Below, piece by piece: positions 7,241 through 42,222 of a DNA stretch of 64,000 nucleotides. A program made the translations under genes and the position numbers. Origin of the DNA: Tieghemostelium lacteum (taxonomy: Eukaryota); the NCBI GenBank assembly GCA_001606155.1, contig LODT01000028.1, positions 406,735 through 470,734 of the forward strand, in the 5' to 3' direction. The number at the start of each line of letters is the position of its first letter. The stretch's first letter is position 1. Below the pieces are notes generated by a model, which saw only the letters and a program-made list of their open reading frames with translations, did no database searches and had not been told where the DNA came from.

Positions 7241-7654
7241 TTTAATTTTTAAGTAAATTATTTTGCACTAAATAGCTTTAAATCTTCCTTAGTGTTCGAT
7301 TTAGCTGTCAACCAGCATTAAATTGTAGATATGTTAATTAAAAAGGGTAAGAAAAAGGTTTTAAAATCTTATTCACTAGAGGTAGCGGGATTAAACCCCA
7401 AATATGCAGAAGATATCAAAATATATTTAACTAAAATTTCTAATAAATTGAACAACCTCAAATACAATCAATAAGTCTAACAGCTCTTCAGCAATAGTGA
7501 ATAACAACAATTTGATGAATTTTTTAAAAGACTTTAAGATTCATTTTATTTTTTTTTTAAGTTGCTAAGAAAAATATCTGAAATTTGATTACTTTTTAGA
7601 AGGAAGAAGGACAATCTTTCGAATTTTTTTTTTTTGATATTTCTTCATTTTAAA

Positions 7655-9181
7655 ATGAGAATAGTAAACAGTATTTTAGTTTTACTGTTTATATGTATTG
7701 TTGTCAACCAATGTATTGGTAAAACTATAGAAGTTCCAACTACTCAAAGACATTCTACAGTTGTGTCATCAGGACCATATGACAGTGGTTCAGGTGAAAA
7801 CTCTGCATCTGCATCAACAGCAACTGGAACTGGATATCAAACTACTAGATCTTCAACCACTGAATACACCACTCGAAGCAGTGGTCCATATGATAGTGGT
7901 TCAGGTCAAAACTCCGCCTCTTCATCAGGATCATCAGCATCTGCAACAGGATATCAAACTACCAGACCTTCAACCACTAAAAGATACACAACTCAAAGCA
8001 GTGGTCCATATGACAGTGGTTCAGGTCAAAACTCTGCCTCTTCATCAGGATCATCAGCATCTGCAACTGGATATCAAACTACCAGATACGCAACTACTAG
8101 AACCACCGAAAGCAGTGGTCCATATGACAGCGGTTCAGGTAAAAACTCTGCATCAGCCTCGTCAGCATCATCAGGATACGGTCCATATGACAGCGGTACA
8201 GGTAAAAGCTCTGCATCATCTTCAGCATCTTCTGGAACAGGATATCAAACTACCAGACCTTCAACTACTAAAAGATACACAACTCAAAGCAGCGGTCCAT
8301 ATGACAGTGGTTCAGGTAAAAACTCTGCATCTGCATCATCTTCAGCATCATCAGGATACGATAGCACAACTAGAAGATCAACTGATACATCAGGATTTGA
8401 TAGTGGAAGATCATCAACATTTAGACCACATAGTAGTAGTGGTCCATATGACAGCGGTTCAGGTCAAAGCTCTGCCTCTTCATCAGCCTCTTCAGATTCC
8501 GGAACAGGATATCAAACTACCAGACCTTCAACTACTAAAAGATACACAACTCAAAGCAGTGGTCCATATGACAGCGGCTCAGGTAAAAACTCTGCATCAT
8601 CATCAGCCTCTTCAGATTCTGGAACTGGATACCAAACAACAAGATATTCAACTACTAGAACCACAGAAAGCAGTGGTCCATATGACAGCGGTTCAGGTAA
8701 AAACTCTGCATCAGCATCATCTTCAGCATCATCAGGATACGATAGCACAACTAGAAGATCAACTGATACTTCTGGATTTGATAGTGGAAGATCATCAACA
8801 TTTAGACCACATAGCAGTAGTGGTCCTTACGATAGTGGTTCTGGTGGATCATCTGCATCAGGAACATCAGGATCATCATCAGGATATGACACAACTAAAA
8901 AATCCTCAGGACCATATAGTAGTGGATCATCAGGTGATATTCCAAATCTCCCAATTCCACCAGCTTCATCAACTCCACAACCAACACCAACTCCAACCCC
9001 ATCACCAAGTACTGTTGTAACACCACCAACTGAATCTGCTGATGTTTCCAACTCCAATTCCGAAGAACCTCCAACAACAACAGTTGGTATAATTTTTGGA
9101 TTCATTGTTTTCTCAACATCATTAATTTTCACTAGCATTTTCTTTAAAGCTATTTTTTGTAATACTTTAAATCAACATTGA
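7655..9181 (+). CDS. Secreted Ser/Gly/Thr-rich tandem-repeat protein with a hydrophobic C-terminus (GPI-signal-like)
   Basis: The ATG at 7655 starts the signal peptide MRIVNSILVLLFICIVVNQCIG. The unit SSGPYDSGSG[QK]NSAS..GYQTTRPSTTKRYTTQ is reiterated. A Pro/Thr linker (PQPTPTPTPSPS) and the hydrophobic tail FGFIVFSTSLIFTSIFFKAIFC follow. Confidence 0.75.
   Translation: MRIVNSILVLLFICIVVNQCIGKTIEVPTTQRHSTVVSSGPYDSGSGENSASASTATGTGYQTTRSSTTEYTTRSSGPYDSGSGQNSASSSGSSASATGYQTTRPSTTKRYTTQSSGPYDSGSGQNSASSSGSSASATGYQTTRYATTRTTESSGPYDSGSGKNSASASSASSGYGPYDSGTGKSSASSSASSGTGYQTTRPSTTKRYTTQSSGPYDSGSGKNSASASSSASSGYDSTTRRSTDTSGFDSGRSSTFRPHSSSGPYDSGSGQSSASSSASSDSGTGYQTTRPSTTKRYTTQSSGPYDSGSGKNSASSSASSDSGTGYQTTRYSTTRTTESSGPYDSGSGKNSASASSSASSGYDSTTRRSTDTSGFDSGRSSTFRPHSSSGPYDSGSGGSSASGTSGSSSGYDTTKKSSGPYSSGSSGDIPNLPIPPASSTPQPTPTPTPSPSTVVTPPTESADVSNSNSEEPPTTTVGIIFGFIVFSTSLIFTSIFFKAIFCNTLNQH
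7766..8850. repeat. In-frame coding tandem repeats (~120-nt unit nested in a ~390-nt higher-order unit)
   Basis: GGTCCATATGACAG[TC]GGTTCAGGT[CA]AAAACTCTGC recurs about 10 times. The block YDSTTRRSTDTSGFDSGRSSTFRPHSSSGPYDSGSG occurs twice about 390 nt apart. Confidence 0.85.
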
Positions 9182-35935: not shown

Positions 35936-36294
35936 TTTTATATTCACTACTGATCAAGTAATAGAGAATAACAATAAGATATTTACAAATACTATTACTA
36001 ATTATCTGATCAGAAAAAAAATCTAATCAGTAAATTTGAAAAGTTTGAAAATTTATTAAAAACAGGATATTTTTTATAGAATTTTGTTGGAAAGCTCATT
36101 TATCTCAACATATTAAAAGATTTTTCATTTCTTTATTGTAATTCTCAAAATGAAATGTAATAAAATATGATAATATTATAATATATTTTAATATGTGTGG
36201 TTCTAGTTCTAACAATGTTAGACTATTTTCACCAATAAAACCAAAATTCAAAAAATCTAAAGTATCTAAAGAATCTTCTACTCTGAAATAACTC

Positions 36295-37885
36295 CTACAT
36301 ATCGTAAATGGATGAGTTTATTATGACATTATATTTGGAGAATACATCTAATAAATCAAGTTTAATTTGAGTTAAACGGTGTTCATTAGATAAATTAAAA
36401 CAATTCATTTGTTGAATTGTTGTATTGATTCTAAAGAGTTCAATAAATTCTTTTACTATATCAGTTGTGAATTCAAAGGTATCTGCCCATGGAGGTGGAA
36501 GAATAAATGTATGAAGAGTTTTGTTGATTGTTAGAATTTTAATATATAGTTCACAATGATTATAATTGATATTACGGCTGTACGAAAAATCCTCTATAAC
36601 TAACGCTGTTAGTGTGGTGTTGTGAGATAGTGATTTTATAAACAATGTTAAATCATTTTCAATACTATTTTCATTGTGATGGAGATAGTATACTATATCT
36701 TTGAATATTTGGATGTGGAATTGACAGAAGTTGATTTAGAACACCAAAATCCAATTCATAAAAATCAACAGTATGAAGATTTTTATGTACTGATATATCA
36801 TTAATCCTCATTGAGCTTGATAAATCATGTAATGTGAGATACCGTAGATTTTTAAATTCTTTAACTTTAACCGTATTTTCATTGGGTGCGAAAATGGATT
36901 TTATATTATCTTTGTGTTTCCATAACTCTAATATTCTGTCATTATTTGTTGTGAAAAGTTCTAGAGAATGTATCAATTGGTTTGTTATGTTATCTGATAA
37001 TGTTTCATTGTTCCATTTTAAAGAAACTAAAATTAGAGTACCAGTTTTGATATTGGATAGAAAATCAACAACTATTTGATGTGAGGTGGTAATATTTGAC
37101 ACCACTCTCAAACGTTGCAGATTCATTGATTGTGAAGAGTGATTTAATATTTCCAAAACTTTATCGTATTGGTTTTTATCTTCATTTAAGACTATATTCT
37201 CTATCTCTAGATTTTGGCAATTCAAAGAGTTTTCCAAGAGAGACTTTAACATCCATTGTGACATTGTAATTCTATCTAAACTTATTTTAGTTAGAGAATT
37301 GGGTTGAAAAGAATTATCATTTTCTCCAATAAAGGTAAAAAAACCAAACCCTAAGCTGATGACTCTTCTATTTTGAATTAACTCTCCAATTCTATTAAAT
37401 TCAATTTTGGATTGCCCTACACTCCAGGTCCAACTCCAACTTTTAATGTGGATGTCAACGTTTGATAATGATTTTAGTTTGTTGAATAGAAATTCTTCTG
37501 AATCTGAAAATGAGGTTTCAACAACTATAGATTCTAAATTCTTGAAATGAGATATTGATTGATCTAAAGTTTTATTTTGTTCATCTTTGATTTCAATCTG
37601 ACTAACTTGATCGCTAATGATTTCATTTAAATGTTTAACTGCATCAGTTGAATATCTAGGTAAAATGAATCTATAATTATACCATTTATATTTATTTGCA
37701 AGTGCTATGAAATCAGGTAATAATTTAATTGTTTTTGATAAATCATTCACATGTCTATATCGTAATTTTACAATTATTGATTGGTCCATTCTTTACTGAT
37801 CAATGTATATTTTCGTAAAAACATATAAACGTATTCAATATCTATTGAATGATTTAGAATTGGATCTAAAATATTAATTACAGAT
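36295..37885 (-). pseudogene. Decayed copy (A) of the F-box-like/LRR-like gene at 40395..41984
   Basis: Colinear with copy B but split into two ORFs (36671..37789 and 36295..36645). There is a 1-nt deletion at 37785 (TTGGTCC versus TTGGTTCC in B), which frameshifts the N-terminus. The start-codon region is replaced at 37880/37881. Confidence 0.7.
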
Positions 37886-39667
37886 ATTGATATACCAAAG
37901 GAACATTGGGACAATGAATCAGTTCAAAAATGGTGTAAATTCCAATGAATTTACCTGAAAAGGATTTATTAATTATTAATGACTTAGATGGATTTTGTTT
38001 AGTATATTTTTATCAATGTGGAAATTTAATAAAACAATTAAGGGATTTTGGTGTATCCCTCCCTTCTTCACATAGAATTCTTACAAAATTCAATCCACCA
38101 CAAACACAATGTAAACTAAACATCTATCATAATCTAACGCTTTTTGTTCATTTTAACTTATATTTTTTATATAAAATTCAACACAATTAAAAACCTGTTG
38201 ACATTCAACTACACTATAGGGCAGCAGGGTATGTAGATTGCTTGAATAATGTAAAGTATTTAGGTGTTGAAACTAGATATTAACTTAGTAATAATTAGCT
38301 GATAAAAGTTGGACATTTGTAAACCCAGTAAATCAAGGAAATTATTACCACATTGATCCAAAAAATTTACAATTATAAAAAAGCAATCCAAGGTGGGAGT
38401 TGGTTAGTTCAGGGGTCATATAGAAGTGGCAAAACAACCCATATGATAGCACTTGAAAAACAAATCCAAAAACAATTTTTTCCATTCATTTTCACTTTGA
38501 ACCCTTATATTGACATTTGGAAAAATATATCAGGTACAATCTCAATAGATTACCCTGATTGTGGGCCTATTAAAGATGTCAAGGAATTTAGAGACAAGTT
38601 TCTAGCCAATAAGAAGTATTTTGGAGGGAAGAATGTAGTTTTATTATTTGATGAGTTCCAATGTTTACTTGATACCGAAGAGTACTTTGTATTCTGCTCA
38701 GAAATGAAAAATATAATGGATAACAGAGCCACTTATAACATACAAGCCATTTTTGGTTTCGGGACATTTCAAACTACTAAATTGGCAAAAATAGATAGCA
38801 AAAGCACTTTTAGTCCATTTCATATGCCAGAAACAACTATTATAGAACCACTTCCAGAGAAATTGGTATATATACTACTCAATGAATGGGCAAGTACTAT
38901 AGGAATGGTAATACCACCTTCAATTCTAAAAGATATATATATAACTATTGGTGGGTATGCAGGTATTCTTGGACTGCTTGGATTAGCTCTCCAGAGTTCA
39001 ACTAGTATAACTTAAGTCTAGCCATAATAAAAATATGACAATGAACCAGTGGATGTTTATTCGTGAACAGACTTCTAGTAATTTACAAAAACAACCTCAT
39101 TCCAGAAATTAGTATTAATAATTTCAAGTGACGAGAAAATTTCAAAACTTGCAGAATATATTTTATATGGTCCAGAACCATTTTTTTTCTCACCAGAAAA
39201 TATTGAATATATGATGACGCTTTTAGATTATGGGTTGTTAAGACAAGATAGCAAAAGCAACAAATTTTATCTTTCCTCTCCATTAGTTAGAGAGTTCTTA
39301 TTAGCTAAATACTATAGAGAGGTTAACTCCATATATTATTTCAACAGAAGTTAAAACAAGTGTTATCGGAAACAGAAGAATAGATATTTTGGTTAGAAAT
39401 GGAAAAAGAATTATATTTGAATTGAAATCTGATTTGAAATGGGAGATTGCTGATTTAGCTCAACAATCTGTAATACAATTTGATAGAGATGCAGAGGATT
39501 TTCAAGTTCATACAGCCATTATATTAAATTTAGTCCCCAATGGATCAAAATTTTCTCATATAGAATTTATCCATAATCAAGTTAAATATTTTATATTCGA
39601 GGTAATTTTTGATGGAAACACATTCACACTCAACACAAAAGAAAATATTGAAGCAACTTTGAAATAA
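37881..39667 (+). pseudogene. Frameshifted gene encoding a SAM-like domain, a P-loop (Arch_ATPase/AAA-like) NTPase, a winged-helix region and a PD-(D/E)xK nuclease-like domain
   Basis: The pieces lie in different frames. The SAM-like part is HWDNESVQKWCKFQ* / MNLPEKDLLIINDLDGFCLVYFYQCGNLIKQLRDFGVSLPSSHRILTKF. SWTFVNPVNQGNYYHIDPKN follows. The NTPase part is ORF 38353..39015, with Walker A GSYRSGKTT and Walker B VVLLFDEFQ. The winged-helix part is KLAEYILYGPEPFFFSPENIEYMMTLLDYGLLRQDSKSNKFYLSSPLVREFLLAKYY. ORF 39389..39667 carries RRIDILVRNGKRIIFELKSD (D..ExK). The gaps between pieces are too short to be introns. Confidence 0.55.
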
Positions 39668-39774
39668 ACAATTTTTTTATTCCCATCATTTCCTATCTCT
39701 AATATCAATCAAAACAAATATCTCATAAATACCTGAATTACAACCTCCAATAATATTAAAATCTATTATTTACT

Positions 39775-40110
39775 TTTTGTAAATGGATGAGTTTATTATG
39801 ACATTATATTTGGAGAATACTTCCAATAAATCAAGTTTTATCGGATTCATCTGATAAATGAAAACATTTCATTTTTTGAATTGTTGTATTGATTATAAAG
39901 AGTTCAATAAATTCTTTAACCATATCAGTTGTGAATTCAAAGGTATCTGACCATGGAGGTGGAAGAATAAATGTATGAAGAGTTGTTGATTGTTAGAATT
40001 TTAATATATAGTTCACAATGAATATAATTGATATTACGGCGTAATCCTCTATAACTAATGCTGTTAGTGTGGTGTTATGAGACAGTGATGTTATAAACAA
40101 TCTTATATCA
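39775..40110 (-). pseudogene. Truncated third copy of the 3' end of the LRR-like gene family
   Basis: Strongly similar at the nucleotide level to 36295..36650 (AAATGGATGAGTTTATTATGACATTATATTTGGAGAATAC...). It has several indels and stops and no upstream continuation. Confidence 0.65.
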
Positions 40111-40394
40111 TTTTTTGTAAGACATCAATATCTAATTGTAAGACATCGATATCTAATAGAGTCTTATAGTCAAAGTATATATATATATATAGTTTTCCTA
40201 TATATAGAAGTATTCTTAGAGATCTTGAATCTCTTAATAATCTTATATAATATTATTGTTGTGTATGATATAGTTCAAGAGATAACAATAATATAGAACT
40301 ACGGTAAAGAGTAAATATCTTTATAATTTTCGTAAATATCTCTTTAGAAATGAAATGTAAAGTTATGTTGGTAATAAAGAATTTACATTTACAT

Positions 40395-41984
40395 TTAGTA
40401 AATGGATGAGTTTATTAGAACATTATATTTGGTGAATACATCCAATAAATCAATTTGAGTTAAACTGGGTTCTTTAGATAAATCAAAACAATTCATTTGT
40501 TGAATTGTTGTATTGATTCTAAAGAGTTCATTAAATTCTTTTACCATATCAGCTGTGAATTTAAAGGTATCTGACCTTGGAAGTGGTAGAATAAATGTAT
40601 GAAGAGTTTTGTTGATTGTTAGAATATCAATATATAGTTTACAATGATTATAATTGTTATTAAACATATACGAAAACCTTTTTATAGCTAACCCGGTTAG
40701 TGTGGTGTTGTAAGAGAGTGATGTTATAAATATGCCTAAATTATTTTCAATACTATTTACATAGGAACGGAGATCGTGTATATTATATCTTTGAACACTT
40801 GAATGTGGAATTGACAGAATTTGATTTAGAACACTTATATCCAATTCATAAAATTCAATAGTGTGAAGATTTTTAAGTGCAGAAAAATCATTAATCCCCA
40901 TTGAGCTTGTTAAATCTGGTAATGTGAGATACCGTAGATTTTTAAATTCTTTAACTTCATATTTACTAGCACCACTTACCCAAATGGATTTTATATTATC
41001 TTTATGTTTCCATAACTCTAATATCCTATCACCCTTAGTTGTGATGATAAGTTCTAGAGAATGAATCCATTGGTTTGATATATTATCTGGTAATGTTTCA
41101 TTGTTCCATTCTATATAAACTAAAATTAGAGTACCAGTTTTGATATTGGATAGAAAATCAACAACTACTTGATGTGAGGTGATTATATTTGCTGAGTCCA
41201 CCCTCAAACGTTGCAGATTCATTGATTGTGAAGCATGTTTTAATATTTCATAAACTTTATCGAAATTGTTTTCATCTTCATCTAAGACTATACCATGAAT
41301 TCCTAGATTTTGGCAATTCAAAGAGTTTTCCAAGAGAGACTTTAACATCCATTGTGACATTTTAATTCCATCTATAATTATTTTAGTTAGAGAATTGGGT
41401 TGAAAGGAATTTGTATTTTCACCAAAACAGGATAAAGACAAAAAATGTATGCTGATAACTCTTCTATTTTGAATTAACTCTCCAATTCTATTAAAATCTT
41501 CTAATTGTGGCACCACAAAAATTTTAATATTGATGTCAATGTTAGATAATGATTTTAGTTGGTTGATTAGATATTCTTGGGATTTTAAAAATGAAGTTTC
41601 AACAACTATAGATTCTGAATTCTTGAAATGAGATATTGTTTGATTTATATTTTTTCTTTGTTCATCATGGATTTCAATCTGACTAACTTGATCTCTAATG
41701 ATTTCATTTAAATGTTTATAATAACAATTAGGTAAAATGAATCTATAATTATACCATTTATATTTATTTGCAAGTGCTATGAAATCAGGTACTAATTTAA
41801 CTGTTCTTGGTCTTTGTAAATTATTAACATGTCTATATCGTAATTTTACAATTATTGATTGGTTCCATTCTTTACTGATCAATGTATATTTTCGTAAAAA
41901 CATATAAACGTATTCAATATCTATTGAATGATTTAGAATTGGATCTAAAATATTAATTATCAGATAATTAGGTATCATCGCCAT
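40395..41984 (-). CDS. F-box-like / leucine-rich-repeat-like protein (intact copy B)
   Basis: 529-aa uninterrupted ORF. The N-terminus is F-box-like (IPNYLIINILDPILNH..LISKEWNQ). Irregular LRR-type periodicity follows (NLRYLTLPDL, LKNLHTIEFYELD...). Confidence 0.7.
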   Translation of the reverse strand: MAMIPNYLIINILDPILNHSIDIEYVYMFLRKYTLISKEWNQSIIVKLRYRHVNNLQRPRTVKLVPDFIALANKYKWYNYRFILPNCYYKHLNEIIRDQVSQIEIHDEQRKNINQTISHFKNSESIVVETSFLKSQEYLINQLKSLSNIDINIKIFVVPQLEDFNRIGELIQNRRVISIHFLSLSCFGENTNSFQPNSLTKIIIDGIKMSQWMLKSLLENSLNCQNLGIHGIVLDEDENNFDKVYEILKHASQSMNLQRLRVDSANIITSHQVVVDFLSNIKTGTLILVYIEWNNETLPDNISNQWIHSLELIITTKGDRILELWKHKDNIKSIWVSGASKYEVKEFKNLRYLTLPDLTSSMGINDFSALKNLHTIEFYELDISVLNQILSIPHSSVQRYNIHDLRSYVNSIENNLGIFITSLSYNTTLTGLAIKRFSYMFNNNYNHCKLYIDILTINKTLHTFILPLPRSDTFKFTADMVKEFNELFRINTTIQQMNCFDLSKEPSLTQIDLLDVFTKYNVLINSSIY

Positions 41985-42222
41985 GCTTTAAAATCATAAA
42001 GTGTGTTAATATTCATTTAAATATCTTTAATCAATATTTTTGTTAATTTAAAAAATCCAGTAAATTTCGTTGAAAAAAATTCAAATCAATGATATAAGTT
42101 AGACTTGTAAAATAACACTTTATTTGAAACTTGGATTGTATTTAATTTTTTTTTTTTTATTAATTTATTTTTTTTGTAACGCTGACCAAATTAAACCGAT
42201 ATATTTAATTTCAGGGTGATAG

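Follow-up and report, generated by a model that had tools for sequence, protein, structure and literature searches.

Positions 37880-39667 of the 64,000-nucleotide (nt) stretch of Tieghemostelium lacteum DNA analysed here (the window; assembly GCA_001606155.1, contig LODT01000028.1, positions 406,735 to 470,734 of the forward strand) carry a broken gene related to DLAC_07413, which joins a SAM-like N-terminal header to a nucleoside triphosphatase (NTPase), a winged helix and a PD-(D/E)xK nuclease. With a probability of about 0.88, this + strand locus is an unprocessed, intron-retaining pseudogene, a duplicate of a DLAC_07413-type gene from which no functional protein is expected. Three-frame translation of 37700-39750 and tblastn recover the pieces of one gene in colinear order, spread across three frames. 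A search with the conceptual join of these pieces finds DLAC_07413 (KYQ..., 618 amino acids (aa)), an intact T. lacteum paralogue on another contig (884 kb), at E = 1e-268; a second homologue, P0002 (545 aa), is 34% identical. The window copy and DLAC_07413 share 85.2% identity over 528 aligned residues, which fall into seven colinear pieces of 71-93% identity each. When DLAC_07413 is searched against the window by tblastn, the two largest pieces score E = 1.9e-160 and E = 1e-58, so the match is not a chance one. These matches are confined to 37880-39667, and the window therefore carries a second, separate copy of the gene; a search for further family copies in the 64-kb window found none.

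DLAC_07413 and the window copy run in the same order and have the same header, NTPase, winged helix and nuclease. Unlike the window copy, DLAC_07413 has an ATG and 14 more N-terminal residues, is free of frameshifts, and keeps residues 442-504 with the catalytic-glutamate helix. The window copy has no start codon, contains five frame-breaking lesions and has lost part of its nuclease active site, so no functional protein is expected from it. An earlier reading made from the letters alone (the sequence-only reading) had assigned a set of colinear motifs at 37881-39667 to a broken, "dying" gene. Three-frame translation and tblastn of DLAC_07413 bear out the motif order, and comparison with intact DLAC_07413 bears out the decay. 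The span stands too, except that homology begins one base earlier, at 37880.

Pieces, lesions and introns of the window copy

The 5' end of the gene is missing. Homology starts at 37880 with DLAC_07413 residue 15, the ATG and the rest of the first 14 codons are gone, and no in-frame ATG lies upstream. The start codon and upstream region are absent because the copy begins at a head-to-head junction with another truncated gene. The first piece on the + strand, piece A (37880-37942, 81% identity), opens the SAM-like header with TDIDIPKEHWDNESVQKWCKF, equivalent to DLAC_07413 residues 15-35. Lesion 1 (37943-37944) consists of two extra bases, or of the loss of 1 nt, and puts KWCKF and (M)NLPEKD in different frames; the old frame then reaches a TGA stop. 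Piece B (37945-38110, 71% identity) holds the remainder of the header, residues 36-92.

The next change of frame has a different character. Between 38111 and 38298, GT..AG segments break the homology exactly where the frame needs restoring. Intron 1 (38111-38219, 109 nt, GTAAAC...TATAG, 23% GC) and intron 2 (38229-38298, 70 nt, GTATGT...AATTAG, 24% GC) flank a putative micro-exon of 9 nt (38220-38228), placed by protein alignment, in which WQQ stands against GMQ of DLAC_07413. Removal of 38111-38219 and 38229-38298 restores the frame, giving ...PPQTQ-WQQ-ADKSWTF against ...PPETQ-GMQ-ADKRWTF in DLAC_07413. A single 188-nt intron at 38111-38298, with the micro-exon inside it, keeps the frame as well. 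Judged from the sequence, this frame change is what one or two ordinary introns of the GT..AG type would produce, and not a lesion. The claim that the gaps in the gene are too short for introns is thus wrong for 38111-38298, where one or two normal short introns fit. Inspection of the locus sequence found no poly(A) tract after the stop at 39667. Retained introns together with the missing A-tract mark the copy as unprocessed rather than retroposed.

Downstream of the introns, piece C (38299-38375, 88% identity) encodes a linker and the N-terminal strand of the NTPase module, ADKSWTFVNPVNQGNYYHIDPKNLQL. Lesion 2 (38374-38378) is a deletion of ~11 nt at ~38376, removing DIL plus 2 nt, with a TAA stop at 38376-38378. 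Piece D (38374-39012, 85% identity) spans the AAA+ NTPase core, with Walker A GSYRSGKTT (38413-38439), Walker B VVLLFDEFQ (38635-38661), an SPFH motif (38812-38823) and a GGYAG motif (38944-38982). Lesion 3 (39011-39015) is a ~5-nt deletion at ~39013 that takes the E336 codon and 2 nt, and a TAA stop follows. Piece E (39011-39097, 93% identity) is a helical lid segment, LKSSHNKNMTMNQWMFIREQTSSNLQKQP. Lesion 4 (39098-39099), a deletion of 1 nt, falls in the codon equivalent to Q366. Piece F (39100-39327, 87% identity) comprises a helical region and the winged helix, whose wing, YGLLRQDSKSNKFYLSSPLVREFL, lies at 39229-39300.

The largest lesion affects the nuclease. Lesion 5 (39325-39331) is a ~191-nt deletion at ~39328 that removes DLAC_07413 residues 442-504 (~63 codons) and shifts the frame, seen in a three-way alignment as a gap of 63 residues. 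With this segment goes E485, which lies on the SEYxFQAE helix of the PD-(D/E)xK domain and does not vary across the family, and the loss leaves the nuclease domain of the window copy incomplete; the D and ExK positions are kept. Piece G (39329-39667, 90% identity) holds the rest of the PD-(D/E)xK core, with RRIDILV (39374-39394) and FELK (39416-39427), followed by a C-terminal beta region and a TAA stop. The sequence-only reading counted at least four frame changes, and the number stands. One of its sites, 38190-38350, is mostly intronic, the true lesion there being the ~11-nt deletion at 38376, and both the missing first 14 codons with their ATG and the ~63-codon deletion at ~39328 were overlooked.

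Several observations weigh against pseudogene status or soften its details. The sizes of the indels and the positions of the introns are read from the protein alignment with DLAC_07413. Within the pieces there are no nonsense substitutions at all, despite 15% amino-acid divergence, and the C-terminal 53 residues of the window copy do not differ from those of DLAC_07413. Such a pattern is a little odd for a copy dead on arrival; it hints at recent inactivation or gene conversion, which it fits better than a long-dead copy. Two lesions, at 37943 and 39098, may be single-base errors.

Sequencing or assembly error could in principle account for more than those two, leaving the gene intact in the organism, and the sequence-only reading had offered poor consensus quality as an explanation of its own. 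Two of the five lesions are indeed only 1-2 nt (37943-44 and 39098-99), one lesion adjoins an A6 run (38376-38382), and the pieces lack internal nonsense changes, as already described. The other lesions measure ~5, ~11 and ~191 nt, however, and the 5' end is lost at a junction with unrelated sequence. In the inspected sequence around the four small indels, simple homopolymer slippage does not account for any of them. Elsewhere in the window, four long open reading frames (ORFs) of 415-1208 aa, including DLAC_05546 and DLAC_05565, are exact matches to deposited T. lacteum proteins, and another ORF, of 2517 aa, runs uninterrupted, whereas the duplicated genes flanking the pseudogene have decayed in the same manner. 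The exact matches also dispose of an AT-rich fungus as the source of the DNA, an option raised by the short introns. Error as the source of the frame breaks is therefore very unlikely.

Even less likely is a locus that remains functional through very short introns, programmed frameshifting or the product of its annotated ORF. The only GenBank annotation at the locus is 38443-39015, DLAC_05563 (KYQ92962.1), a 190-aa product 100% identical to that stretch, and genuine short introns do exist at 38111-38298. At 38374-38376 and 39011-39013, however, the homologous codons of adjacent frames overlap by 2 nt, so that no intron or splice can mend lesion 2 or lesion 3, and a full-length product would require five independent recoding events. 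It would also lack a start codon and the helix carrying the invariant E485. The 190-aa ORF fares no better: it begins beyond the Walker A motif and its lysine, and ends ahead of the lid, the winged helix and the nuclease. DLAC_05563 is the longest ORF fragment of the pseudogene, not a 190-aa protein.

The junction and the neighbouring duplicates

The pseudogene begins at a rearrangement junction. At 37881-37887, a 5'-truncated copy of a neighbouring gene on the - strand (copy A) meets the 5'-truncated pseudogene on the + strand head to head, and the bases CAGATA are common to both sides. When 37760-37960 is aligned with 41839-42039, the two match almost perfectly as far as ~37887 and lose all similarity after it. 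The similarity between copy A and a second copy of the neighbour gene (copy B) ends exactly where homology to DLAC_07413 begins on the opposite strand. These two copies form a direct repeat, 36285-37880 against 40379-41959, at 86-100% identity and with a spacing of ~4.09 kb.

Decay is shared by the surroundings. Copy A (36304-37881, - strand) is itself a pseudogene, spread over three frames and lacking the first 8 codons of copy B, which is an intact ORF of 529 codons (40395-41984, - strand). Directly downstream of the DLAC_07413-like pseudogene lies the decayed 3' end of a third copy (39779-40154, - strand), covering residues ~399-529 in two frames. The pseudogene thus sits among decaying duplicates that together span ~3.8 kb. 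A Pfam scan of the neighbour family returned no match, and a provisional "F-box/LRR" label for it was dropped since no Pfam match backs it. The practical value of these results lies in annotation: DLAC_05563 should be recorded as a pseudogene fragment, and the left-hand neighbour and the right-hand fragment are decayed too. Beyond that, the pseudogene itself contributes evidence of duplication and decay in a family of Crinkler/RHS-type (CR) proteins, and no more.

The repeat is uneven along its length. Its 96 nt at 37785-37880 and 41864-41959 are 100% identical, against 86-92% for the remainder, a pattern suggestive of gene conversion at this spot or of a mosaic origin. Between the third-copy fragment and copy B, a short (TA)n run with an AT-rich spacer occupies 40176-40200. 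Far from the locus, 8001-9000 is the kilobase of the window richest in GC (43% vs ~29%); it overlaps the ORFs at 7634-9181 and 7761-9020, which also overlap each other.

The parent family and its SAM-like header

A HMMER profile built from DLAC_07413 and P0002 retrieves 326 cluster representatives at E <= 1e-3 and 101 at E <= 1e-10. Named amoebozoan members are DLAC_06663 and DLAC_01878 of T. lacteum and proteins of Acytostelium subglobosum, Heterostelium album (PPL_10591), Dictyostelium cf. discoideum, Soliformovum and Arcella; named fungal members come from Serendipita, Gryganskiella, Entomortierella and Apophysomyces. Single sequences give little in profile searches: the four raw window pieces have no significant match in Pfam, and DLAC_07413 alone has no useful match in Pfam, NCBIfam or PDB sequences. 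Scanned member by member, 86 family proteins match AAA_35 (52 members), AAA_22 (49), AAA_16 (28), ATPase_2 (25) and PDDEXK_3 (5), and 11 of the 86 carry the Crinkler N-terminal domain PF20147, at best with E = 1.3e-26. Against the PDB, the family profile finds ORC4 (E = 1e-6), Cdc6 and 2fna. A P-loop NTPase with Walker A and Walker B is present, as is a helix-turn-helix (HTH) domain between NTPase and nuclease, both of them features that the CR module requires. An AlphaFold model of DLAC_07413, made with a 150-sequence alignment, contains the winged helix as helix 398-409, hairpin 413-424 and helix 427-437.

The same model gives the C-terminal domain the order alpha-beta-beta-beta-alpha-beta (helix 485-503, strands 509-514, 524-529 and 533-540, helix 547-564, strand 568-575). 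In an alignment of 35 sequences, E485 never varies and R523, D525 and E537 hardly ever do; K539 is the consensus residue, kept in most members and replaced in several fungal ones. The Pfam matches of the nuclease domain are nearly all to PD-(D/E)xK families: PDDEXK_3 in 14 of the 35 (best E = 1e-5) and PDDEXK_9 in 6, followed by HSDR_N_2, DpnII-MboI, Hjc and CoiA_nuc. The domain of DLAC_07413 taken alone matches PDDEXK_3, Hjc and PDDEXK_10 weakly. A profile of the domain aligns with the Cas4 structure 4ic1 at E = 0.001 through RaDilirn...iviElK. Topology, motifs and profile matches together confirm the nuclease fold at the superfamily level. A restriction-endonuclease-fold domain with E...D...ExK is accordingly present in the family and in DLAC_07413, and incomplete in the window copy.

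The nuclease profile also matches two separate regions of PDB entry 7esz ("Bacteria factor B", 740 aa), with an overall E = 4e-4. Its sequence may hold a pair of PD-(D/E)xK-like domains that are relatives of the DLAC_07413 family.

Members of the family run from a SAM-like header through an ORC/Cdc6-like AAA+ NTPase and a winged helix to a PD-(D/E)xK nuclease. The sequence-only reading had named the P-loop NTPase, the winged helix and the nuclease, and family-wide and profile searches uphold all three calls at the superfamily level. By homology to the CR module, intact members would be NTP-regulated nucleases, in which the winged helix would bind nucleic acid and the E...D...ExK site would cut it. 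The AAA+/ORC-like NTPase may then act as a switch, coupled through the winged helix to the PD-(D/E)xK nuclease.

At least 10 other proteins (at least 11 in all) begin with a header like residues 1-92 of DLAC_07413 and differ in their C-termini, and, leaving out P0100, the header-bearing proteins of known source are all from T. lacteum. Besides DLAC_07413, carriers include DLAC_01878, DLAC_08954, DLAC_08806, DLAC_08578, DLAC_02354, DLAC_07968, DLAC_07094 and DLAC_08539. The header precedes a divergent AAA_35-type NTPase-nuclease in DLAC_01878, a STAND-like P-loop NTPase in DLAC_07094, a RING-H2 finger in DLAC_08539 and, in DLAC_08806, a short, nuclease-like domain in which a D...ELK motif occurs. 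Some T. lacteum paralogues consist of the header alone, three of them named "SAM domain-containing protein" in UniRef.

The SAM-like assignment draws on several signals. SAM_Ste50p matches 3 of 10 headers (best E = 0.006, below threshold), and the header profile has just two matches in the PDB, both to SAM domains and both below threshold: 2dkz (E = 0.43) and liprin-beta (E = 1.8). The N-termini of other amoebozoan family members match SAM_1 or SAM_2 at E = 0.01-0.08, again below threshold. In the AlphaFold model, for which the alignment held ~10 header sequences, the header has a predicted local distance difference test score (pLDDT) of 35-67 and mixes helix and strand. The profile signals agree with one another and, each lying below threshold, are consistent with a SAM-like header; the earlier call of a SAM-like N-terminus therefore stands at the superfamily level, short of a significant profile match. 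PF20147, the ubiquitin-like LxLFLAK Crinkler header, has no match in DLAC_07413, in the window pieces or in the header alignment. The header may serve as an interchangeable targeting or oligomerisation module.

Two further observations concern header proteins. NCBI calls P0043, a T. lacteum protein of 158 aa, a "T7-like mitochondrial DNA helicase", but its content is a SAM-like header with a short low-complexity tail; the name is probably a mis-annotation, or the protein a fragment. A second segment, GIDDS[AV]AESI[AT]EQLV...LRPKYFPNW, stands beside the header in P0133 (= DLAC_08539, residues ~29-95) and in P0100 (~70-130), and that of P0133 matches SAM_KIDINS220 weakly (E = 0.009).

Relation to known systems

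Several known proteins resemble the family in part. Among them, along with the ORC/Cdc6-STAND neighbourhood, are archaeal AAA+ ATPases that carry a winged helix at the C-terminus, such as PAB2304 (PDB 2qen) and SSO1545 (PDB 2fna) of PF01637 (ATPase_2). Their identity to the DLAC_07413 family is only 13-14%, and they have neither a nuclease domain nor a SAM-like header. Cas4/RecB-like nucleases (4ic1) share an R-x-D ... E-x-K core, which aligns with the Cas4 catalytic strands. This likeness is one of superfamily only, as the Fe-S cluster cysteine motif of Cas4 is absent from the DLAC_07413-family nuclease and the context is different.

Bacterial proteins that combine PF09820 with PDDEXK_9 (PF08011) show an analogous order, with the AAA-type NTPase ahead of the PD-(D/E)xK nuclease, and the sequence-only reading had placed the gene in this architecture. 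The order is analogous, and membership does not follow: neither the window pieces nor DLAC_07413 match PF09820 or PF08011, nor does P0002 match PF09820. Across the family, PF09820 matches 2 of 86 members (best E = 0.004) and PF08011 matches 6 of 35 C-terminal domains (best E = 0.002), whereas AAA_35, AAA_22 and PDDEXK_3 score far better. PF09820/PF08011 is an architectural analogy.

The same analogy, with those weak matches in a few members, is what favours a recently acquired bacterial gene of the PF09820 + PF08011 type that is now decaying after horizontal transfer. A prokaryotic connection at great depth is also on record, since the review PMC5289972, in its account of the CR module as a whole, traces the origin of the module to ancient prokaryotic transposon-linked proteins. 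A recent transfer is nonetheless the least likely of the explanations weighed here. The T. lacteum genome itself contains the nearest relative of the window copy, a paralogue 85% identical to it, and the other relatives come from Amoebozoa and fungi; the copy has spliceosomal-type introns and a host-like GC content of 27-33%. With a same-genome paralogue and introns kept, the horizontal origin that the sequence-only reading had entertained is not indicated for the window copy, and duplication within T. lacteum remains the preferred account.

The closest known system is the CR effector module. A profile of the amoebozoan subfamily aligns with Crinkler-headed fungal proteins as one continuous domain, over positions ~100-590 of 632, with E-values computed on a small local sequence set. 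Because the alignment is a single domain, the entire NTPase-HTH-nuclease module is homologous to the module behind Crinkler headers. On this profile evidence, the module of the DLAC_07413 family is the known CR effector module. The sequence-only reading had held that an intact relative would define a new eukaryotic family. Such relatives exist, in DLAC_07413 and its amoebozoan and fungal homologues, but the family is not wholly new, since its module is already known. Amoebozoans are reported to possess CR homologues (PMC12957317).

Through the parent family, dictyostelid genes are linked to the CR effectors of the NTPase-HTH-nuclease type, for which a role in inter-organismal or anti-invader conflict is discussed. 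It is possible, though rather less than probable, that the SAM-like header marks a lineage-specific, Crinkler-like repertoire of modular effectors or immune proteins in T. lacteum that turns over by duplication and decay. Such a repertoire would mount one header on different "warheads": two divergent NTPase-HTH-restriction endonuclease (REase) modules, a STAND-like NTPase, a RING finger and a small nuclease-like domain, along with header-only forms. Set against the CR proteins as the review describes them, it would bring in, from social amoebae, a class of header so far undescribed for conflict proteins of the CR type. The header family offers a small, testable entry to the innate-immunity or conflict systems of these organisms, and is the only part of this analysis worth following up.

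Comparison with the CR proteins brings out both the likeness and the differences. In the review's summary of Zhang, Burroughs, Vidal, Iyer & Aravind (NAR 2016), NTPase + HTH + REase is the commonest C-terminal module of CR proteins (PMC5289972); the DLAC_07413 family has the same three-domain order. The REase is proposed there as the toxic moiety and the NTPase as its regulator (PMC5289972). The window copy differs from CR effectors in being dead. The header sets the family apart as well: CR Crinklers carry the ubiquitin-like LxLFLAK header, whereas the DLAC_07413 family carries a SAM-like one. According to the review, CR headers include several unrelated alpha-helical types besides the ubiquitin-like one, so the ubiquitin-like Crinkler header is not strictly required (PMC5289972). 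In modular logic, the T. lacteum header family and the CR proteins are alike, each joining one header to varied C-termini.

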